The notes beneath the pieces were generated by a model that was not told where the DNA came from, searched no databases, and worked only from the letters and a program-made list of their open reading frames with translations. A stretch of 64,000 nt of DNA from Candidatus Eremiobacteria bacterium. Lineage in GTDB: Bacteria; Vulcanimicrobiota; Vulcanimicrobiia; Vulcanimicrobiales; Vulcanimicrobiaceae. Position numbers and translations under genes: made by a program. Below, one piece after another: positions 47,051 through 57,058 of this stretch (position 1 is the first letter of the stretch; every line of letters begins with the position of its first letter). The DNA is taken from assembly GCA_963737065.1 (NCBI GenBank), contig CAVTRC010000001.1, forward strand, positions 1,472,001 to 1,536,000. Reading direction: 5' to 3'.

Positions 47051-47854
47051 ATGAAGAAACGGCTCATCTCATCTCTCGTTGCTACGGCGATGCTTGCGGC
47101 GGCTATTGCGCCGGCCGCGATCGCCGCCGACTTGACCGATGTCGGCTATATCGATCAGACCGCGCTCGGCAGTCTGCCGCAGTTCGCGGCGGCGAACGCG
47201 CAACTCGCGCAGTATAAAGCCGGGCTCGACCGTCAGTTTGCATCGGCCATGAAATCGGCGCGAACGGATGCCGACAAGCAGAGCATCACGATGCGATTCC
47301 AACAACAATTGCAGGACAAGCAACGCGAGCTCGTCGGGCCGCTGTACCAGCGCGCGCAGCTTGCGCTCGCGTCGGTTGCATCGAAACGCAACCTCTCGAT
47401 CGTCGTCGACAAACGGATCATCGTGTACGGCGGGCAAGACGTCACGAGCGACGTCATCAGCGCGATCCGTAGTCCGCAGGCGCTCAATGCGCCGAGCGCG
47501 TCGCCGCCACCGTCGGAAATCGGCTTCGTCGATCAGTCGGCGCTCGACAATTCGACGAAGGTTCAAGACGCGAACAAACAGCTTCAGCAGTACATGGACC
47601 AACAGCGTCCATCGTTCCAGACGAAGCTCAGAGATGCGAAGACCGACGCGGAAAAGAACGACGTTGCCTCACAGTTCGATAAGCTGGTCGCCGACAAACG
47701 GGACCAGCTCCTCAAGCCGCTCGTGAATCAAACCAAAGACGCCACGGCATCCGTTGCGAAGCAAAAGAACCTGCTGCTCGTCATCGATCGCGGCGACGTG
47801 ATCTACGGAGGCACGGACATCACCCAAGATGTCCAGAATTCGCTCAACAAATAG
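47051..47854 (+). CDS. OmpH/Skp family chaperone with two tandem domains
   Basis: Two repeats: VGYIDQ...VYGGQDVTSDV and IGFVDQ...IYGGTDITQDV. Confidence 0.85.
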   Translation: MKKRLISSLVATAMLAAAIAPAAIAADLTDVGYIDQTALGSLPQFAAANAQLAQYKAGLDRQFASAMKSARTDADKQSITMRFQQQLQDKQRELVGPLYQRAQLALASVASKRNLSIVVDKRIIVYGGQDVTSDVISAIRSPQALNAPSASPPPSEIGFVDQSALDNSTKVQDANKQLQQYMDQQRPSFQTKLRDAKTDAEKNDVASQFDKLVADKRDQLLKPLVNQTKDATASVAKQKNLLLVIDRGDVIYGGTDITQDVQNSLNK

Positions 47855-49178
47855 CAGACTTTATCTGTCAAAGATAAACCTTTGCCAGCTAAAGTCGGCG
47901 ACCTCGCGGTCGCTGGTGATCCTCGCGCTAGCCATGTCGGTCGTCGGCTGTTCGCGCGTTGACGTGCACTCGAGCACCGTGCGCGGCGTGGCGTACGTTC
48001 GCATCGACGACGTGATCAAGCACCACCCGCTCTACCCGCAAGTGCAACAGCTTGAGGACGCGGTAACCGCGATCAACCTCGAATCGACGATGCCGCGCGC
48101 GCCGCTTTCGCCACAGGAGATCGCGCAGCAGACCGAGTTGCTCAACAAGCAGCTCAAGGACGCGCAAAACCGCGCGAACGCGGCGATTCAACAGAAGCAG
48201 CGCCAATACAGCGAGCAGGAACGCCAAGCCGATATCGCGGCGCTCAAAGCGGCGAACATCGATCCGCGCGCGGCAGGGCTCGGCGAGCAAATGAACGCGA
48301 CCTCGCAGCAGCAGGCCCAAGCAGCGGCGAATGCTGCGCAGCAAGATTATCAACAGTATCAGCAGAGCGTCGTCGCGCAGGACAACACGGCGGTGACATC
48401 GGTCGCGCAGCAACTCAACAAAGAGGCAGATCAAAAATTCCGCGCGCGCGCCGAGCAGTATCAGCAGCAAGAGACGGATCTGTCACTGCGCCTCGCACAG
48501 CAAGACGCGACGCAACGCCTGGCACTGAAGACCAAAGCGAACAACATCGCGATGGACGCGACGCAACGCAAAGCGGTCGGCGATCAACTTGCGGCACTCG
48601 ACAAGAAAGAGGCGGACCAAGTCGCGGCATTGCGCGCGCAGCACCAGCAGGCTCTCGCTGCGTATCAAAAACAACTGCGCGCTGAAACGACCGCCGCGAT
48701 TCAAAAGCAAGCCGGAGCGATCCGCAGCCAGACGCAAGCGAAGCTTTCGGCGCGCCAGCAGCAAGTCGGTGCCCAATTGCGCGGACTCAACGCCGCGCCC
48801 GTTCCGCAGCAGAGCATTCCGCCCGACGTGCAGCAGCAGCTCGCGAAAATCCATCAGCAGTTCGGGGCGAAGTTCCAGGCCGACGCGCAAGCGACCGTTG
48901 CGCAATACAACGCCACGAAGAGCGATCTCGACAAGCAGTTTGCGGCGCTCCACGGCGAAGACGTCGGAGCGACCGGCGCGGCCGCAAAACAACTGAGCGA
49001 CCTGCAGAAGCGCCACGACGACCTTCTCGCCCAAATTCAGTCCCAGATCCAACGCGAAGCCGATCGAATCGCGAAGGATGACGGGTTCACGGTCGTCTTT
49101 GACAATGTCCAAGCCGCGAACGGCGGCTACGATCTCACCAACGATCTCATCCGCGACGTCGAAAGTCTACACGAGTGA
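47829..49178 (+). CDS. Extended Gln-rich coiled-coil OmpH/Skp-like probable lipoprotein (start uncertain)
   Basis: Lipobox-like VVGC; VAYVRID.V...HP at the N-terminus and GFTVVFD...GGYDLTND at the C-terminus. Confidence 0.72.
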   Translation: MSRIRSTNSRLYLSKINLCQLKSATSRSLVILALAMSVVGCSRVDVHSSTVRGVAYVRIDDVIKHHPLYPQVQQLEDAVTAINLESTMPRAPLSPQEIAQQTELLNKQLKDAQNRANAAIQQKQRQYSEQERQADIAALKAANIDPRAAGLGEQMNATSQQQAQAAANAAQQDYQQYQQSVVAQDNTAVTSVAQQLNKEADQKFRARAEQYQQQETDLSLRLAQQDATQRLALKTKANNIAMDATQRKAVGDQLAALDKKEADQVAALRAQHQQALAAYQKQLRAETTAAIQKQAGAIRSQTQAKLSARQQQVGAQLRGLNAAPVPQQSIPPDVQQQLAKIHQQFGAKFQADAQATVAQYNATKSDLDKQFAALHGEDVGATGAAAKQLSDLQKRHDDLLAQIQSQIQREADRIAKDDGFTVVFDNVQAANGGYDLTNDLIRDVESLHE

Positions 49179-49587: not shown

Positions 49588-50616
49588 ATGCTGGGGACGC
49601 TCGCGGATCTGCAAGCGAAAGTCGGGGGGCGCGTTGTCGGCGACGGCTCCGTTACGATTGCACGCGTGTCGTCGGTCGATGAAGCGACGAACGACGCGCT
49701 GACGTTTGCGACCGAGGAGAAGTATCTTGCCGCTGCATTCGCGAGCCCGGCGGCGGCGGTATTGGTCGACGATAGCGTTCCGATGGGCGGCGAACCACCG
49801 CCGAAACCGGTGCTGATCGTCGAGAACGCGCGCGCGGCGCTTGCAACGTTTCTTGCGGCGCTCAAACGCCCGCGCCCGCGCGGACCGTTCCGTCATCCGA
49901 GTGCGATCGTCGAAGAGGGCGCGACGCTCGGCGACGACGTCTATCTCGGTGCAAATGCGTACGTGGGAAGCGGCGCGCACGTCGGCGATCGTTCGACGAT
50001 CGGCGTCGGCGCGTATGTCGGCGCCGACGTGCGAATCGGTGAAGATACGTGGCTGCATCCGCACGCGGTCGTGCATGAAGGCTGCGCGATCGGCAGTCGG
50101 GTAGTGTTGCATACCGGCAGCGTGATCGGCAGCGAAGGCTTTGGCTGGGCGTTCATCGAGGGGCGCTTGGAGCGCATCCCGCAAGTCGGCAACGTAGTGC
50201 TCGACGATGAAGTCGAAATCGGCGCCAATACGTGCGTCGATCGCGCGCAAACCGGAAGCACGCAGATTGGACGCGGCACGAAGATCGATAACTTGGTGCA
50301 GATCGGGCACAACTCGCGCATCGGCATGCACTGCGCGATCGCCGCGCAAACCGGCTTTGCAGGTTCGACGAGCGTCGGAGACTTCGTGAAGATCGCGGGG
50401 CAAGTCGGCACGCGCGGACATATGCACATCGGCTCACGTTCGACGGTTGCCGGACAATCGGGCGTGTGGGGCGACGTCGATGAAGGCGCAATGATTTCGG
50501 GCAATCCCGCGCGCGATCATCGCGAGTGGATGAAAGCGGAGGTCATGATTCGCAGGCTGCCAAAGCTCGTCGCTCGTGTCGACAAGTTGGAGCGCGAGCG
50601 CGAGCACGAAGAATAG
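49588..50616 (+). CDS. lpxD: UDP-3-O-acylglucosamine N-acyltransferase
   Basis: Hexapeptide repeats; IGSEGFG, EIGANTCVDR and KIDNLVQIGHN motifs. Confidence 0.96.
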   Translation: MLGTLADLQAKVGGRVVGDGSVTIARVSSVDEATNDALTFATEEKYLAAAFASPAAAVLVDDSVPMGGEPPPKPVLIVENARAALATFLAALKRPRPRGPFRHPSAIVEEGATLGDDVYLGANAYVGSGAHVGDRSTIGVGAYVGADVRIGEDTWLHPHAVVHEGCAIGSRVVLHTGSVIGSEGFGWAFIEGRLERIPQVGNVVLDDEVEIGANTCVDRAQTGSTQIGRGTKIDNLVQIGHNSRIGMHCAIAAQTGFAGSTSVGDFVKIAGQVGTRGHMHIGSRSTVAGQSGVWGDVDEGAMISGNPARDHREWMKAEVMIRRLPKLVARVDKLEREREHEE

Positions 50617-50621
50617 CCGGA

Positions 50622-51427
50622 ATGAACGCCGCAACGCTGCGCGAGCCCTTACGTTTCGAGGGTGTCGGATTACATACCGGAACGCGTGCGACGATGCAAG
50701 TTCAGCCGGCGCAACCCGGCACCGGCTACGTGTTCGTTCGCGGCGAGACGCGTATCCCGCAACCGCGGAACATGCGAACGAATCGCCTCTAGCGACCGTC
50801 ATCGCGCATGAAGGGACCAGCATCTCGACGATCGAGCACATTCTCTCCGCGCTCGTCGCGATGGGCGTTAGCGACGCGGAAATCACGATCGAGGGAGACG
50901 AGATTCCGATTCTCGACGGCAGCGCGAAGATCTACGCGGATGCGATCGCGGAGACCGGACTCCGCACGTCCTCGCAAGCGCGTCCGGTGTTTGCTCCGGC
51001 ACAGCCGTTCGAAATTCGTAACGGCGAGAAAGCCGTCGTCGTTCTTCCCGCCGATGCGTTCCGCGTGCGCTTCGTCGGCGAGTACGGCGCGCCGATCGGC
51101 ACGCACTATTACGATGCGATCATCACGCCTGAACGATACCGGACCGACATCGCGCCCGCACGTACGTTCGCGTTTCTGCGCGACGTGGAAGCGATGCGCG
51201 CGCAAGGTTTGGCGCGCGGCGGCAGCTTGGATAACGCGCTGGTCTATGACGAGGAAGGGCCGATGCAGCCGTTGCAATGGCCGAATGAGGCCGTGCGACA
51301 CAAGGTGCTCGACCTGATCGGAGATTTCGCGCTGCTCGGCGCCTATCCCCAATGCGAAGTAATCGCAATCAAAAGCGGACACGCGCTGCATACGCGCTTG
51401 ACGCGTGAATTGAGGAAACGTGCCTGA
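50622..51427 (+). CDS. lpxC: UDP-3-O-acyl-GlcNAc deacetylase, about 268 aa; one base missing near 50756-50759
   Basis: GVGLHTG in one frame; TIEHILSAL, IAPARTF, HKVLDLIGD and KSGH in the other. Confidence 0.92.
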
Positions 51428-51893
51428 TATCGACATACGGCAGATCATGGAGATTTTGCCGCATCGCTATCCGCTTTTGTTGGTGGATCGCATCATCGAA
51501 CTCGAGCCGGGCGTGCGCGCCCGCGGGTTCAAGAACATCACCTACAACGAACCGGTCTTCACCGGGCACTTTCCAGGCAATCCGCTCTTCCCGGGCGTCT
51601 ACATGATCGAAGCGATGGCGCAGCTCGGCGGCTGCGTCGTGTTGGAACCAGGCGAATTCTCACGCAAGGTTCCCTATCTCGCGGGGATCGACAAGGCAAA
51701 ATTTCGCCGTCCCGTCGTGCCCGGTGACCGGCTGATGATGGAAGTGCGTTTGGTCAAACACAAGCGGAACATCGGCTGGGTCGAAGCGGAAGCGAAAGTC
51801 GAAGAACAGCTTGCGTGCTCCGCCGAACTGATGTTCTCGATCGCATCGGATCCGCGCAGCTTCAGCCTTGACGCGGCCGTCCTCCACGTTTAA
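51420..51893 (+). CDS. fabZ: 3-hydroxyacyl-ACP dehydratase
   Basis: LPHRYPLLLVD, GHFPG.P..PGV..IEAMAQ and FRRPVVPGD motifs. Confidence 0.96.
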   Translation: MPDIDIRQIMEILPHRYPLLLVDRIIELEPGVRARGFKNITYNEPVFTGHFPGNPLFPGVYMIEAMAQLGGCVVLEPGEFSRKVPYLAGIDKAKFRRPVVPGDRLMMEVRLVKHKRNIGWVEAEAKVEEQLACSAELMFSIASDPRSFSLDAAVLHV

Positions 51894-51961: not shown

Positions 51962-52729
51962 GTGATCCATCCGACTGCGATCGTGCATCCTAATGCCAAT
52001 ATTGCGCGCGGGGTGGAGATCGGGCCGTATTGCGTCGTCGGTGAAAACGTGTCGATTTCCGTCGGCACCGTGTTACAGGCACACGTCATCGTCAACGGTT
52101 GGACGGAAGTCGGCGAGAATTGCGAGATCTATCCGTTCGCGACGATCGGTGCAGCATCGCAGGACCGAAAATATCACGGCGAGCGCGCGTACACGAAGAT
52201 CGGCAACAACACGATCGTGCGCGAATACGTCTCGATTCAGCGCGCGACGGGCGAAGATCACGTAACCGCGGTGGGCGACGACTGTTTGTTGCTCGCATAC
52301 ACGCACATCGCGCACAACTGCGTCCTCGGCAACTACGTCACGATGTCGAATCTAGCGCAACTCGCGGGACACGTGGAGGTCGGCGATTACGCGACGATCG
52401 GCGGACAAGCGGGCGTCCATCAATTCACGCGCATCGGTCGCTACGCGATGATCGGCGGCGCAAGTAAGATCAGCAAAGACGTACCGCCGTTCTTTCTCGT
52501 CGAAGGCAATCCCGCGGAACCGTACGGGTTGAACTCGGTCGGGCTGCGACGCGCGGGCTTCAGCATCGCAGAACGCAACGAGATCAAGAAGTTTTACAAG
52601 ATTCTCTACAATCCGAAGATGAACGTCTCGCAGGCGGTCGAAGCGATGAAAGCCGAAGCGTCGAGCGATCCCGGCCGCGAAATCATCGCGTTCCTCGAGT
52701 CTCCCTCGCAACGCGGCATCCTCAAATAG
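51962..52729 (+). CDS. lpxA: UDP-GlcNAc O-acyltransferase
   Basis: IHPTAIV, IGPYC, QDRKY, IAHNC, LAGHV, VHQF and GLNSVGLRR motifs. Confidence 0.96.
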   Translation: MIHPTAIVHPNANIARGVEIGPYCVVGENVSISVGTVLQAHVIVNGWTEVGENCEIYPFATIGAASQDRKYHGERAYTKIGNNTIVREYVSIQRATGEDHVTAVGDDCLLLAYTHIAHNCVLGNYVTMSNLAQLAGHVEVGDYATIGGQAGVHQFTRIGRYAMIGGASKISKDVPPFFLVEGNPAEPYGLNSVGLRRAGFSIAERNEIKKFYKILYNPKMNVSQAVEAMKAEASSDPGREIIAFLESPSQRGILK

Positions 52730-52769: not shown

Positions 52770-53894
52770 ATGAGATACTTCTTTTCGAGCGGCGAAGCCT
52801 CAGGCGAGCTAAGTGCAGTGTTGCTCGCCGACGCGATCGCAACCGTCGATCCCGAGGCGCAATTCGAGGGGATCGGTGCAGAACGGATGCGGGAACGCGA
52901 TTTCAATCTGTGGCGCGACCATACCGGGTGGGCGAGTATGGGACCGATCGCGGCGCTTCCGCGAATTCCGAAGTTGCTCAACGCCATGTGGCAAACAGCG
53001 CACCACATCGCCGAAGAGAAACCGGATCTCGTCGTGCTCGTGGACTTCGGCGTGTTCAACATGCGATTGGCGAAAGAGCTGCGCACGAAACACGACTATC
53101 AGGGCCCGATCATGGATCTCTTTCCGCCCGCGACCTGGCTCGACAAAGAGAAAGTCGCCCGCGCCGTTGCGTCGTGGACGGTGCCGGTGACCGCGTTCGC
53201 GCATCAGTACGAGTTTTATAAGCGCCATCGGCTGCCGATCATGTTTTTCGGGCATCCGCTGGCCGGCCGGTACGTGACGCGCGAGGCACGCGCCGCGCCC
53301 GCGAGCGATAACGGCACCGTAGCGCTCTTGCCGGGAAGCCGCGGCACCGAGATGCGGTATCACGTTCCCGCGTTGATTGGTGCGCTCAATGCGTTGCGCG
53401 AACGCCGTCCGCATATGCAGGCAATCTTCGGAGCGGCAAACGACGCATCCGAGCGCGCGATCGCGCGCGCCGTCAAAGACGCGGAACTCGATAACGCCCG
53501 CATCGTGCGCGGGTTGCCGGAAGCGCTGCGCGAGGCCGATGCGGCGTTCGTTGCGTCGGGAACAGCGGTGTTGGAAACGATTCTGCTCGGTGTGCCGGCC
53601 GTTGCGTTGTACATCATCGCACCGTATCTCGTGCATCATGCGCGACGCGTGTATTCCGGCAAATATATTACGCTGCCGAACCTCGTGCTCGGGCGTGAAC
53701 TCGTTCCCGAATTGCTGCAAGACGAGGCAACGCCGGAGCGATTGGCGGAGGCCATGGATCGATTGCTCGACGATCCCTCCGCGCAGTACCGGCATATCGG
53801 TGAAGTGCGCGCTGCGCTCGGCTCGCCGACGGCGCTCGACGACTGCGCGCGATTTGCGGTTGCGCTTGCGAAAGCCGGGCAGCAGCACGCGTGA
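52770..53894 (+). CDS. lpxB: Lipid-A-disaccharide synthase
   Basis: GEASGE, VDF..FN, FGHPL, LLPGSR, SGT..LE, LPN and PELLQ motifs. Confidence 0.93.
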   Translation: MRYFFSSGEASGELSAVLLADAIATVDPEAQFEGIGAERMRERDFNLWRDHTGWASMGPIAALPRIPKLLNAMWQTAHHIAEEKPDLVVLVDFGVFNMRLAKELRTKHDYQGPIMDLFPPATWLDKEKVARAVASWTVPVTAFAHQYEFYKRHRLPIMFFGHPLAGRYVTREARAAPASDNGTVALLPGSRGTEMRYHVPALIGALNALRERRPHMQAIFGAANDASERAIARAVKDAELDNARIVRGLPEALREADAAFVASGTAVLETILLGVPAVALYIIAPYLVHHARRVYSGKYITLPNLVLGRELVPELLQDEATPERLAEAMDRLLDDPSAQYRHIGEVRAALGSPTALDDCARFAVALAKAGQQHA

Positions 53895-54682
53895 TCCGGT
53901 TCTATCACACCTCGGATCTGCACGATCATCGCGGCTTTGTGCCGCGCTTGCGCGCATTGCGTGACGAGCGCCCGGGCTTCTACTTCGATTGCGGCGATTC
54001 GCTGCGCGGCAGTCAAACCGTCTATCACCGAAACGAACCGGTCATCGGTGAACTCGATGCCGCGGGCGTCGATGCGCAAGCGATCGGCAATCGCGAGTTT
54101 CACTATCTCTATTCGTTGCTCAGCGCGCGCGCCTCGAAGATGCAGCACCCACTGGTGTGCACGAACCTGCTCGACACGAAGAACCGCGCGCTGCCGTTTA
54201 CCCCTTCTGTCATCCTGAGCTTGTCGAAGGATCGGCTCAATTCAATCGCGCGTAACAATCCTTCGACTGCACTTCGTTCCGCTCAGGATGACACGCGGAT
54301 CCACATCCTTGGGCTACTGATCATGCAGTATCCGGTTGGAAGTCCATACGAGCGAGTCTTCGGGTGGCGATTTCTCGATCCGTGGGATGCGGTCGCGCCG
54401 TACGCGGCGCAGGTTCCGGACGGCGATATGCTGCTCGTCCTCTCGCATGTGGGATTATCACTCGACCGCAAACTCGCAGAGCGTGTGCCGCGCATCGACC
54501 TGATTCTCGGCGGCCACAGCCACGACACATTGTTCGCGCCCGAAGAAGTCAACGGCGTTCCGATCGTGCACGCGGGCCCGTACGGTCAGTACGTTTCTCG
54601 CACGGAACTCGAATATTCGAACCCAAAACGCCGCTTCGCACTTCGCTCGTGCGAGTTGCTGCCGCTGCTCGGGCCTCCATAG
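53891..54682 (+). CDS. Calcineurin-like metallophosphoesterase (5'-nucleotidase N-terminal type); candidate UDP-2,3-diacylglucosamine hydrolase
   Basis: HTSDLHD, DCGD, GNREF, LSH.G and IDLILGGHSH motifs; GTGA overlap with lpxB. Confidence 0.8.
   Translation: MIRFYHTSDLHDHRGFVPRLRALRDERPGFYFDCGDSLRGSQTVYHRNEPVIGELDAAGVDAQAIGNREFHYLYSLLSARASKMQHPLVCTNLLDTKNRALPFTPSVILSLSKDRLNSIARNNPSTALRSAQDDTRIHILGLLIMQYPVGSPYERVFGWRFLDPWDAVAPYAAQVPDGDMLLVLSHVGLSLDRKLAERVPRIDLILGGHSHDTLFAPEEVNGVPIVHAGPYGQYVSRTELEYSNPKRRFALRSCELLPLLGPP
54208..54293. repeat. Palindromic REP/MITE-like element inside the coding sequence
   Basis: Perfect 13-bp terminal inverted repeats TGTCATCCTGAGC...GCTCAGGATGACA; inner pairing GTCGAAGGAT/ATCCTTCGAC. 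Confidence 0.85.
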
Positions 54683-54692
54683 GGCGAGCTAC

Positions 54693-55847
54693 GTGCGTCT
54701 GCTGTTCGTGTCGAACGGGTACGGCGAAATTGCGATCGCGGATCGCATCGCGGAAGAAATAACACGCCTCGAGCCCGGCACGCAGATCGATCACGTCGCG
54801 CTCGTTGGGGAAAGCCGCGCGCGTTTCATGAACGACGTTGGCCCTCGCCGTACGATGCCGAGCGGCGGCCTCATCGCAATGGCCAACGTACGCAACATCG
54901 CACGCGACGTGCGCGGCGGACTGATCGCCTTGACGCTCGCCCAGCGAAGGTTTTTGAAACACGCGCGCGGCCGTTACGATGGTGCGGCCGCGATCGGCGA
55001 TGTCTTTGCGCTTCTGATGACGCTCGCTGCGCACGCGCCGACGACGTACGTAGGAACCGCGAAGAGCGTGCTGGTCGCACCGTATGGGCCGATGGAACGG
55101 CGCACGATCAAGCGCGCGCGCAATATCTTCGTGCGCGATGATGCAACCGCAGCGGACCTGCGACGCCACCACGTCGACGCTATCGCACCCGGCAACGTCA
55201 TCGTCGACCTGTTCGCGGTCGACGACGACCCGCGCGCCGATGAAGCAGTGGCGCGGTTCAAACCGGCGCTGGCGATCTTTCCCGGGAGCCGCGAGAGCGC
55301 ATATGACGACGGCGAATTTCTACTGCGCGTCATCGCGCGCTGCGCGCAGCAACGTCGCGAACTCGGCGCGGTGTTCTCGGTTGCACCAATGCTCGACGCG
55401 AAACGGTTCGCCGCAGTCGCGCGCGATGCGGGTTTCGACGTGCGCGAGCGCAACGACGAACGCATGCCGTTTGAAGCGTTGCTCGGCGAGCGCGTTGTCG
55501 TGCGCGCGTGGCGCGGAGAAATCGGCGTCTTGTTGCGCCGCGTCGAACTCGTTATCGGGCAAGCGGGTACGGCGAATGAAGCCGCGGCCGCCGCGGGCAT
55601 TCCCGTGATGGCATTCGAACTCGCGGCCGATCGCAAGACGCAGTGGTATCGCATGCGCCAGCAGGGGTTGCTCGGCGAAGCATTGACGGTTCTACCGGCG
55701 GATGTCGAGGTTGCATCGAACGGCGTGCTGCATCTGCTCGAGAACGAGTCGCAACGTGCAGCGATGCGCGCGGTGGGACGCGCGCGAATGGGTCCGCCGG
55801 GCGGCGCCGCCGCAATTGCGCGCGCGATCGTGGGGACGCGCTCGTGA
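54693..55847 (+). CDS. Lipid-A-disaccharide synthase-related GT-B protein (cyanobacterial TIGR03492-like)
   Basis: LLFVSNGYGE..IA, LVG, MPSGG, VRD..TA, GN...D, PGSR, AGTANE and RMGPPG motifs. Confidence 0.78.
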   Translation: MRLLFVSNGYGEIAIADRIAEEITRLEPGTQIDHVALVGESRARFMNDVGPRRTMPSGGLIAMANVRNIARDVRGGLIALTLAQRRFLKHARGRYDGAAAIGDVFALLMTLAAHAPTTYVGTAKSVLVAPYGPMERRTIKRARNIFVRDDATAADLRRHHVDAIAPGNVIVDLFAVDDDPRADEAVARFKPALAIFPGSRESAYDDGEFLLRVIARCAQQRRELGAVFSVAPMLDAKRFAAVARDAGFDVRERNDERMPFEALLGERVVVRAWRGEIGVLLRRVELVIGQAGTANEAAAAAGIPVMAFELAADRKTQWYRMRQQGLLGEALTVLPADVEVASNGVLHLLENESQRAAMRAVGRARMGPPGGAAAIARAIVGTRS

Positions 55848-57058
55848 TACACCGCTGGAACGCATTCGCACCGGTTGGGCTCGCGATCGCGTTCGCATGC
55901 GTGCCGCTCTTTCCGTCGTTCATCACGCTGACGAACGTGCAATTTCCCGGCGTGTCCGTGGTGCCGCTGCCGGCGGCGCTCGTGGTGCTTGCGCTCATGG
56001 GCGTCCTTGCCGTTTGGGGAGTGCCCGCGTTGTTCGTTGCGCCGCACACCGATGTGCCGCTTGCGCGACCGCTCATCGCGTGGTTCTTTGCCGGAATCAT
56101 CAGCGGAATTCTCGGGCTCAATCCGCACGACGGCGCGGTTTTCATCGGCATCTTCGGGCTCTCGCTCATTTGGCACGCCGTTCTCATGCGGTATTACGAC
56201 GCGCCGTACGCCGCGCGCGCGATCTATTGGTCGTACGTCCTTTCTGCGATTCTCGCATGCGGTGCGGCGATCGTGATGCTCACGACGCGCGTTCCCGCGA
56301 GCCTGTATTCGGTTGCAAACGGCCGCGCGGTCGGAACATTCGTCTTGCCGGGCGAACTCGCCGGGTACGCGATCGTATTGTTGCCGATCAGTTATGCGCT
56401 CGCGCGGATCGCGAAAGAACGCGCGCTGCGTATTGCCGCAACCATCGCGCTCCTCGCCGGCGCGCTCGCAATCGTCCTGACGTTCTCGCGTACGGGATGG
56501 ATCGGCCTTGCGTGCGCGATCGCATTTTTCGTGGCGCTGCAGTCACAACGGCAGCGGCGCGGCGTTGCGGTTGCGGCCGCCGTAGTGCTTGCAGGGCTCG
56601 CGATCGTCTTGCTGCTCTTCAACGAGCGTCACAACCCGAGCGAAAACTATACGCGCATTTCGATTTGGCAGGCTGCGCTCGGCGCGATCGATCGCTTCCC
56701 GTTGACGGGGGTCGGGCCGTTCGGCTTTTCACATCTCTATCCGCTCGTGCGCCTGCCGGACGGCGACGAAACCGCGTTCCACGCGCACAGCCTCTATCTC
56801 ACGTTCTTCGCGGAACTGGGCATCGTCGGATTCTCGGCATTTCTGTGGACGCTCTGGGAATTTGCTGCAGAGATGAACCGCCGGCTGCGCGCGGCGTCGG
56901 CGGATGCGCGCATGCTCGGACTTGCAATAGCGGCGGGACTTGTGGGAACGCTCGTGCAAGGGCTGATCGATACCGTGAGCGTGATTATCTTCGGCTTGCT
57001 GCTTCCCATGCTCGCGCTGGCGCTCGCCGCCGCGCGCTCCGGCACCGTTGACGCATGA
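55844..57058 (+). CDS. O-antigen ligase (WaaL/Wzy_C) family membrane protein
   Basis: RAVGTF, LTFSR.GW, R..IW, P.TGVG and HAHSLYL...AELGIVG motifs. Confidence 0.88.
   Translation: MIHRWNAFAPVGLAIAFACVPLFPSFITLTNVQFPGVSVVPLPAALVVLALMGVLAVWGVPALFVAPHTDVPLARPLIAWFFAGIISGILGLNPHDGAVFIGIFGLSLIWHAVLMRYYDAPYAARAIYWSYVLSAILACGAAIVMLTTRVPASLYSVANGRAVGTFVLPGELAGYAIVLLPISYALARIAKERALRIAATIALLAGALAIVLTFSRTGWIGLACAIAFFVALQSQRQRRGVAVAAAVVLAGLAIVLLLFNERHNPSENYTRISIWQAALGAIDRFPLTGVGPFGFSHLYPLVRLPDGDETAFHAHSLYLTFFAELGIVGFSAFLWTLWEFAAEMNRRLRAASADARMLGLAIAAGLVGTLVQGLIDTVSVIIFGLLLPMLALALAAARSGTVDA

Follow-up and report, generated by a model that had tools for sequence, protein, structure and literature searches.

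Lipid X formation is an essential step of lipid A biosynthesis, and in the Raetz pathway lipid X is the acceptor that LpxB, the lipid A disaccharide synthase, needs. Three enzymes are known for this step, LpxH, LpxI, and LpxG, which are unrelated or barely related to each other and among which LpxH is an antibiotic target. To our knowledge, several phyla that carry lpxA, lpxC, lpxD, and lpxB have none of the three. UshA, for its part, cleaves uridine diphosphate (UDP)-sugars to uridine monophosphate (UMP) and a sugar-1-phosphate. The present analysis concerns a window of 64,000 nucleotides (nt) from the genome of a Candidatus Eremiobacteria bacterium (GenBank assembly GCA_963737065.1, contig CAVTRC010000001.1, positions 1,472,001 to 1,536,000 of the forward strand; coordinates below count from the first letter of the window), in which the gene directly downstream of lpxB encodes a short metallophosphoesterase, hereafter the phosphoesterase. 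We regard this protein as a reasonably probable candidate for a UDP-2,3-diacylglucosamine hydrolase, the lipid X-forming enzyme, which would add a fourth, independently arisen enzyme to LpxH, LpxI, and LpxG. Our literature searches, from which most subscription journals were absent, found no paper describing a lipid X enzyme of this short type with the motif GNRE.

LpxG was discovered through the complementation of E. coli lpxH. An earlier note on this stretch of DNA, made from its letters alone, had named GNRD as the mark of LpxH, and two papers bear this out, describing the exchange of His for Arg in block III as one found only in LpxH (PMC3087551; PMC5016852). In LpxH, Arg80 forms a bidentate salt bridge to the 1-phosphate of lipid X, a group that corresponds to the beta-phosphate in the substrate (PMC5016852). 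The phosphoesterase of the window has an Arg at the same block, and three features define its gene:

53891-54682, + strand: candidate phosphoesterase gene, a 263-amino-acid (aa) open reading frame (ORF) for a short 5'-nucleotidase/UshA-type metallophosphoesterase with GNRE
53891-53894, + strand: GTGA overlap, in which the GTG start of the phosphoesterase gene (53891-53893) and the TGA stop of lpxB (53892-53894) share 4 nt
54086-54100, + strand: GNREF codons (block III), with the Arg68 codon (54092-54094) in place of the usual catalytic His

The phosphoesterase is a complete, stand-alone catalytic N-domain of the 5'-nucleotidase branch and lies outside LpxH. Pfam finds Metallophos (PF00149) alone in it, as a borderline match just under the cut-off, and all elements of the five-block metallophosphoesterase signature are present except the block III His: SDLHD (D9, H11), CGDSLRG (D36), GNREF (residues 66-70), LSHVG (H186), and IDLILGGHSH (H209, H211), the GGHSH of which is encoded at nt 54509-54523. 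The N-terminus, MIRFYHTSDLHD, leads directly into the first metal motif, and its MIRFYHTSD matches the relatives in the alignment, consistent with the GTG start; a further conserved stretch reads GLLIMQYPVGSPYE..FGWRFLDPWDA. Across 23 aligned close relatives, which are usually about 241 aa long, the mean column identity is 75%, and the seven metal ligands (D9, H11, D36, N67, H186, H209, and H211) show no variation or almost none; each of them is also kept in 67 or 68 of 68 diverse short relatives. Because the profile of this family matches 150 of the 151 genomes sampled from the phylum and the relatives share this level of identity, the ORF is not a chance one, and given the conserved ligands together with a confident structural model, an active enzyme is predicted.

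Searches by profile and by structure place the protein in the same branch. The AlphaFold model, built with 69 sequences, has a mean predicted local distance difference test (pLDDT) of 93.6 and a predicted template modelling score (pTM) of 0.90, with low confidence at about residues 111-135, and its top Foldseek matches are B. subtilis YunD, E. coli UshA, and human CD73 (E 1e-19 to 1e-15). VIA-align superimposes 228-235 residues, over the whole model, on N-domains of the 5'-nucleotidase family with Z 25-27.5 and a root-mean-square deviation of 2.4-3.1 (Z 26-27.5 for those of NadN, YunD, CD73, and UshA), and the aligned part of these 500-565-residue targets is the N-domain only, at residues ~28-320. 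When the profile of the 23 relatives was run against all PDB sequences, it matched 39 chains, all of them 5'-nucleotidase, UshA, SoxB, YfkN, CpdB, or NadN (E 3e-10 to 1e-9 for CD73 and UshA) and none of them LpxH; in this alignment, the R of GNREF stands opposite the H of GNHEF in CD73. A direct hhalign comparison of the family profile with E. coli LpxH returned a probability of 0.7%, with the GHxH block alone aligned. The protein does not nest within LpxH; such nesting is what the earlier note had named as speaking against its proposal. In NCBIfam, the strongest matches are to N-domains, those of SoxB, UshA-like proteins, and UshA (the NCBIfam name of which is bifunctional UDP-sugar hydrolase/5'-nucleotidase), all far under their cut-offs. 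The features that had been read from the letters at the outset hold up throughout: the UshA/5'-nucleotidase-type motifs agree with the PDB profile, Foldseek, and VIA-align; neither a signal peptide nor a membrane helix was found, the maximum Kyte-Doolittle 19-residue mean being 0.93; the C-terminal substrate domain is absent, since the chain ends at residue 263, the fold match is to the N-domain, and neither Pfam nor NCBIfam matches a C-terminal 5'-nucleotidase domain in it; and residues 66-70 do read GNREF instead of GNHEF. The phosphoesterase thus fits best in a subfamily of its own within the 5'-nucleotidase branch, one of short forms with GNRE.

The Arg of block III is a constant feature of this subfamily. 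When 1.84 billion representative proteins were scanned with HMMER, 9719 matched at E<=0.001, and the best 150 of them were examined; 66 of these 150 were 225-290 residues long, and with two close relatives added, 68 short forms were aligned. All 68 have Arg in GN-R-E, and at the same position the 53 long-form rows of the tree have His (48), Arg (3), Gln (1), or Asn (1). The tree itself, made with the quick version of IQ-TREE, holds 122 rows, after removal of rows in which the match covered <80% of the domain. One of its branches, with 99% support in the Shimodaira-Hasegawa-like approximate likelihood ratio test (SH-aLRT), has on one side all 48 long His forms plus two other long rows and on the other all the Arg forms, 67 of them short and three longer, along with two short rows in which the motif was unread. 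This topology, the root position of which is not fixed, is compatible with a single origin of the Arg forms.

The gene is nearly universal in the GTDB phylum to which the window belongs (Eremiobacterota/Vulcanimicrobiota); close relatives of the protein carry the source names Candidatus Baltobacteraceae and Aquilonibacter. In a sample of 151 genomes, 121 of them >=90% complete and one of them unpublished (G127), the phosphoesterase profile matches 150, as do LpxB and TIGR03492, a family of LpxB-related glycosyltransferases whose gene adjoins that of the phosphoesterase in the rows compared. LpxH was found in 0/151 of these genomes, LpxI_C in 0/151 at E<=0.001, and LpxK in 1/151, as a borderline weak match. 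Since LpxB needs lipid X, a lipid X-forming enzyme is expected in the phylum. Both the phosphoesterase gene and lpxB could be placed in 135 of the 151 genomes, the 16 in which one of the two had no printed place being left out; the two genes share a contig in 123 of the 135, always <=5 kb apart, and lie on different contigs in 12. The pair is on the same strand with the phosphoesterase gene downstream of lpxB in 121 of these 123, and the gap between them is <=300 bp in 81 genomes. In the sole genome without the phosphoesterase gene (G130), the lpxB match ends at profile position 173 of 374 and TIGR03492 is missing too, so a contig break is a possible explanation.

The genome of the window (3.08 Mb in 2 contigs, 95.3% complete) was searched for the known enzymes in its own right. 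It has no LpxH (TIGR01854) match at E<=10 and one chance-level LpxI_C match (E 0.86) that lies elsewhere than in the phosphoesterase; no N-domain of WaaA, the transferase of 3-deoxy-D-manno-octulosonate (Kdo), was found in it. For LpxG, the YaeI model NF008460 was used as a rough stand-in, YaeI being the protein that we take LpxG to resemble, and it gave chance-level matches alone (E 0.1 and 0.3). The claim of the earlier note that recognisable lpxH, lpxI, and lpxG are lacking therefore stands for lpxH and lpxI, neither of which turned up elsewhere in this genome or in the 151 of the phylum, and is qualified for LpxG, which was judged by its published features only. Eight other Metallophos ORFs of the genome were considered as LpxH and rejected, none being LpxH-like: three are YfcE-like, and the others are CpdA-like with a leader of the twin-arginine (Tat) type, of the YmdB type, PdeM-like, SMPD-like, or a 456-aa GNND protein with chance-level family matches only.

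The gene set of the phylum is the "four-enzyme" lipid A set without LpxK, in the order lpxD-lpxC-fabZ-lpxA-lpxB. The same set and the same order are described in cyanobacteria and Dictyoglomi (PMC3087551), and a cultured representative of Eremiobacterota has an outer membrane covered with lipopolysaccharide (LPS) and abundant 3-OH fatty acids (PMC9758169). Within the window, the genes around the phosphoesterase are as follows:

49588-50616, + strand: lpxD (LpxD N-domain and hexapeptide repeats)
50622-51427, + strand: lpxC (Pfam LpxC; two frames, with one base apparently missing at ~50756-50759)
51420-51893, + strand: fabZ (FabA-like domain, E 5.4e-32)
51962-52729, + strand: lpxA (Hexapep and Acetyltransf_11 domains)
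52770-53894, + strand: lpxB, lipid A disaccharide synthase (Pfam LpxB E 2.2e-57; TIGR00215 173.8 bits), directly upstream of the phosphoesterase gene
54693-55847, + strand: TIGR03492-like LpxB-related glycosyltransferase (TIGR03492 E 7.8e-61), 10 nt past the phosphoesterase gene

These Pfam and NCBIfam assignments confirm the domains of lpxA, lpxC, lpxD, and lpxB, the operon content that had been proposed from the letters, and they extend it on both sides: upstream lie tamB, bamA, and three OmpH/Skp-like genes, and downstream the phosphoesterase gene is followed by the TIGR03492 gene ("lipid-A-disaccharide synthase-related"), an O-antigen-ligase-family gene, lptC, lptB, and lptF/G. As had also been proposed, the phosphoesterase gene is likely translationally coupled to lpxB, judging from the GTGA overlap of start and stop. 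A structure prediction of the phosphoesterase in complex with LpxB scored 0.01, which makes no call either way, and a look for RNA sequencing runs over 52770-55847 turned up none. In lpxC, the N-terminal ~45 residues are in the frame of an ORF at 50526-50792 and the remainder in an ORF at 50576-51427, in which the Pfam LpxC match begins at profile position 41; relative to four aligned relatives, there is a 1-nt gap within a short C/G run, which may be a sequencing error in the 2-contig assembly or a real frameshift.

Two further observations concern the flanks of the operon. One of the three OmpH-like genes in the interval from bamA to lpxD (47829-49178) encodes a 449-aa protein whose long N-terminal part is rich in Gln and Ala and whose OmpH/Skp domain is confined to the C-terminus. 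The longest ORF of the O-antigen-ligase-family gene (55643-57058) overlaps the TIGR03492 gene (54693-55847) by ~200 nt, and the true start of this gene probably lies downstream of the longest-ORF start.

Several observations touch the lpxB-phosphoesterase-TIGR03492 gene group outside the window. Four metagenome proteins are fusions, one of 650 aa (P0153) that joins the phosphoesterase and TIGR03492 domains and three (P0128, P0155, and P0142) in which a C-terminal portion of LpxB is linked with the phosphoesterase; all four are single-member clusters from one contig each, may be artefacts of insertions or deletions, and were weighed weakly. In genomes of genus g42, the lpxB matches lie within open frames of 816-857 codons (e.g., G012:C1:59652-60704), and the phosphoesterase profile match is much weaker (E 1e-25 to 1e-28; 7e-38 in G003). 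TIGR03492 is also over its cut-off in two control genomes, Synechococcus elongatus and Deinococcus radiodurans, the latter of which has no LpxB match.

The fold belongs to the UshA/5'-nucleotidase branch, which makes it the right branch for chemistry of the UDP-sugar type, and a course of reaction can be proposed by analogy with LpxH and with the UDP-sugar hydrolase activity of UshA. Two metals held by D9, H11, D36, N67, H186, H209, and H211 would activate a water, and the resulting metal-bound hydroxide would attack the alpha-phosphate of UDP-2,3-diacylglucosamine, as has been proposed for LpxH. Arg68 would neutralize and position the leaving group, the sugar-1-phosphate with the beta-phosphate of the substrate. 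UMP and lipid X would then be released, and lipid X would be handed to LpxB, encoded just upstream.

A scan of named genomes for the pattern [MQ]xxGNREFH[YF] gave 395 stretches, 381 of them confirmed relatives, of which 80 were kept. These 80 loci are mostly from metagenome-assembled genomes (MAGs) of Armatimonadota and Eremiobacterota/Vulcanimicrobiota, and lpx genes lie <=6 kb away at 20 of them. An apparent spread to Melainabacteria, UBP9, Synergistia, and Armatimonadetes, based on the NCBI labels of lpx-linked copies, was dropped on the basis of contig coordinates, those of the four loci that were traced (L099, L095, L092, and L074) being the same as in genomes from the GTDB phylum of the window.

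Of 101 Armatimonadota genomes sampled, 97 have LpxB and 97 have LpxK, 85 were matched by the short-family profile at E<=1e-15, and neither LpxH over its cut-off (0/101) nor LpxI_C at E<=0.001 (0/101) was found. In 79 of these genomes, an open frame of 229-448 codons holds the top profile match, a count that rests on the profile match with the Arg unread. Weak matches to the LpxH model in five Armatimonadota genomes (E 1e-8 to 2e-14) were set aside; the four that were read carry GNHD and are LpxH2-like. At eight Armatimonadota loci annotated with Pfam (L028, L036, L041, L050, L063, L068, L081, and L097), the short GNRE gene sits in an operon that comprises a SIS+CBS gene, a HAD gene, the short GNRE phosphoesterase, a 600-700-aa PMT_2/ArnT-like membrane glycosyltransferase, and a GT2 or second PMT_2 gene. 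The downstream neighbor is the PMT_2 (ArnT-like) gene at all eight loci, and among the seven loci with upstream ORFs analyzed, the HAD gene (putatively KdsC) is present in six and the SIS+CBS gene (putatively KdsD) in six, both names resting on domain content. The short GNRE gene is thus tied to LPS genes both with LpxK, in Armatimonadota, and without it, in Eremiobacterota, which fits a shared step upstream of LpxB.

Several observations weigh against the proposed function, beginning with the 16 of the 101 Armatimonadota genomes that have no family match even at E 1e-3, one of which has a partial match of E 7e-8 in a long frame (G158, G163, G174, G179, G188, G193, G201, G206, G214, G219, G227, G232, G239, G244, G251, and G252; loci L109-L116 and L149-L152). 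All 16 have lpxB and lpxK, and neither LpxH nor LpxI_C was found in any of them. Three of their lpxB regions, annotated with Pfam, are canonical, reading lpxC-fabZ-lpxA-lpxB-msbA-waaA(-lpxK-lpxL). Five of these genomes have no LpxI_N over the cut-off, with chance-level matches alone, and another five have no GNR-type Metallophos ORF among the returned loci. In four, kdsC comes directly before the PMT_2-type gene, so that the slot of the phosphoesterase is empty, and in one of these four the PMT_2 position is taken by a 684-aa ORF without a Pfam match. A 409-aa Metallophos ORF that lies 4 kb from lpxB in G227, with relatives in three other genomes, was considered and rejected, all of them being SbcD nucleases. 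Another hydrolase, beyond the known enzymes and the short GNRE form, thus probably exists in these genomes; it could also serve the genome of the window, which weakens the argument by elimination, and since neither phylum has LpxH or LpxI anywhere, mutual exclusivity of the short form with these enzymes has no real contrast to draw on.

The protein and its locus add to these difficulties. By model and hydropathy, there is neither a counterpart to LpxH's helical insertion for lipid binding nor an LpxG-like membrane anchor, which leaves the phosphoesterase with no evident way to hold two acyl chains. The Pfam Metallophos score is 21.1 bits, just short of the cut-off of 21.5. The gene is paired as tightly with TIGR03492 as with lpxB, so a later lipid A step fits equally well. 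In the window itself, the neighboring lpxC is frameshifted in the assembled sequence, and an insertion of 22 residues breaks a loop of the phosphoesterase. The earlier note's proposal of a convergently recruited lipid X enzyme is accordingly retained in part: placement in a branch other than that of LpxH, the invariant Arg, and the lack of LpxH and LpxI in 151 genomes argue for it, and the 16 exceptions weaken the part of it that rested on elimination.

The insertion in the copy of the window coincides with an inverted repeat:

54208-54293, no strand assigned: in-frame imperfect palindrome of 86 nt, an inverted repeat with 22-nt arms that are 82% complementary

It adds ~22 residues to a surface loop of variable length, keeps the frame, and holds no stop codon. 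It is absent from 21 of the 23 aligned relatives, and the same insertion is present in P0003, an 86%-identical relative belonging to another genome; at this loop, further relatives carry insertions that differ from it. A 12-nt arm of the palindrome has 22 exact copies in the genome, where <0.5 would be expected, and one possibility is that the element is a small hairpin repeat that is mobile and can sit within coding sequence.

Among the other explanations, a phosphoesterase that tailors lipid A after LpxB, for instance by taking off the 1-phosphate of the disaccharide (or that of lipid X) on the cytoplasmic side, is one that we think unlikely. The TIGR03492 transferase, or in Armatimonadota the ArnT-like enzyme, would then decorate phosphate-free lipid A, an arrangement that would suit the position of the TIGR03492 gene behind that of the phosphoesterase in the rows compared, the presence of TIGR03492 in 150 of the 151 genomes, the joining of both domains in P0153, and the PMT_2/ArnT-like gene next downstream in Armatimonadota; enzymes of the 5'-nucleotidase family are, besides, phosphomonoesterases too. 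P0153, as a single-member cluster that may be an artefact, lends this little weight, and the retention of LpxK in 97 of the 101 Armatimonadota genomes shows that the gene is not bound to phosphate-free lipid A. LpxE and LpxF, the known lipid A phosphatases, are PAP2 enzymes of the membrane with a periplasmic site of action, unlike the phosphoesterase, which is soluble and predicted to be cytoplasmic. The near-absence of LpxK from the phylum (1 weak match in 151) and of WaaA from the genome of the window resembles the cyanobacterial four-enzyme pathway, in which the LPS is phosphate-free (PMC3087551), and speaks for tailoring; yet tailoring would leave the lipid X step unfilled in 150 lpxB-bearing genomes, and the exchange of the general-acid His for Arg is reported, among the enzymes covered by the sources, only for LpxH, an enzyme that cleaves a pyrophosphate (PMC3087551; PMC5016852).

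The same essential gap in the pathway would remain if the phosphoesterase were a cytoplasmic nucleotide or nucleotide-sugar hydrolase in support of the adjoining glycosyltransferases, clearing UDP and UMP or trimming UDP-sugar pools. The closest solved relatives are indeed nucleotidases and UDP-sugar hydrolases, the model has no obvious lipid-binding element, and the adjoining glycosyltransferases are assumed, by analogy with LpxB, to use UDP-sugars; against this, the nucleoside-binding C-terminal domain of 5'-nucleotidases is absent from the 263-aa chain, which has the N-domain fold only, the catalytic His is replaced in every short member, and a supporting role would fail to account for the retention of the gene in 150 of 151 genomes and for its fixed position behind lpxB, all of which makes this reading, in our judgement, distinctly improbable. 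That the copy in the window is inactive or decaying, as the 86-nt palindrome in the gene and the one base missing from lpxC could suggest, we hold to be highly improbable: the insertion is in frame, stop-free, in a loop of variable length, and common to the 86%-identical relative from another genome, no catalytic residue has been lost, the model is confident elsewhere, and the lpxC gap, in a short C/G run of a 2-contig assembly, may be a sequencing error.

A bolder version of the lipid X hypothesis, to which we give only a small chance, holds that the short GNRE enzyme and the TIGR03492 transferase could jointly make up the core that is missing from the four-enzyme lipid A pathway, which lacks LpxH, LpxK, and WaaA. 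The phosphoesterase would make the acceptor of LpxB, possibly going on to phosphate-free 2,3-diacylglucosamine, and the TIGR03492 transferase, a paralog, would replace the kinase and Kdo-transferase steps. If true, this would open a long-unexplained, possibly ancestral, route to a Kdo-free, phosphate-poor lipid A.

The simpler assignment as a UDP-2,3-diacylglucosamine hydrolase would, if true, fill the lipid X gap in Eremiobacterota and in most Armatimonadota, provide a clean case of convergent evolution at one active-site residue, and give access to the poorly understood lipid A pathway, free of Kdo and LpxK, that cyanobacteria share. The combination of short form and GNRE would also be a simple marker for annotating outer-membrane biosynthesis in uncultured bacteria.

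Among the known enzymes, LpxI (DUF1009, PF06230/PF17930) occurs in alphaproteobacteria, diderm Firmicutes, and others, has a fold and mechanism unrelated to those of the phosphoesterase, and has no LpxI_C match in the 252 genomes searched across both phyla; what the two share is the proposed step and, often, a position beside lpxA/lpxB (PMC5007114). With UshA, CD73, H. influenzae NadN, YunD, and SoxB, the phosphoesterase has in common the metal ligands, the LSH.G and GGHSH motifs, and the N-domain fold, but the members of the UshA/5'-nucleotidase family are periplasmic or extracellular and carry a C-terminal substrate domain, whereas the phosphoesterase is predicted to be cytoplasmic and has neither such a domain nor a signal peptide, and the catalytic His of their GNHEF is Arg in all the short forms. 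LpxG (Chlamydia Ct461) is likewise a calcineurin-like enzyme that was recruited independently, in a lineage without LpxH and LpxI (PMC4807358). By its published features, LpxG is a 37-kDa protein with an N-terminal transmembrane helix that reads DXH...GDXXDR...GNHD, with the His kept (PMC4807358), whereas the phosphoesterase has no hydrophobic helix and reads DLH...GDSLRG...GNRE.

No specific sequence relation to LpxH (TIGR01854), the enzyme of beta- and gammaproteobacteria, could be detected. The 190-bit cut-off of the LpxH model is not reached, and no LpxH model is among the NCBIfam matches of the phosphoesterase. E. coli lpxH lies between ppiB and purE, whereas the phosphoesterase gene lies within the lpx operon beside lpxB. 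The helical insertion (HI/lid) that holds the acyl chains of lipid X in LpxH (PMC5016852) is absent from the model of the phosphoesterase, whose one extra stretch beyond the 5'-nucleotidase N-domain is the low-confidence 22-residue insertion. Both are nonetheless members of the metallophosphoesterase superfamily with a two-metal site and a cytoplasmic location, predicted in the case of the phosphoesterase, and they are of nearly equal size, 240 aa in LpxH and ~241 aa in the phosphoesterase without its insertion. In both, the block III His has become Arg, as GNRD in LpxH and GNRE in the phosphoesterase, and the reaction and the role of the Arg that are proposed here are the same as in LpxH.

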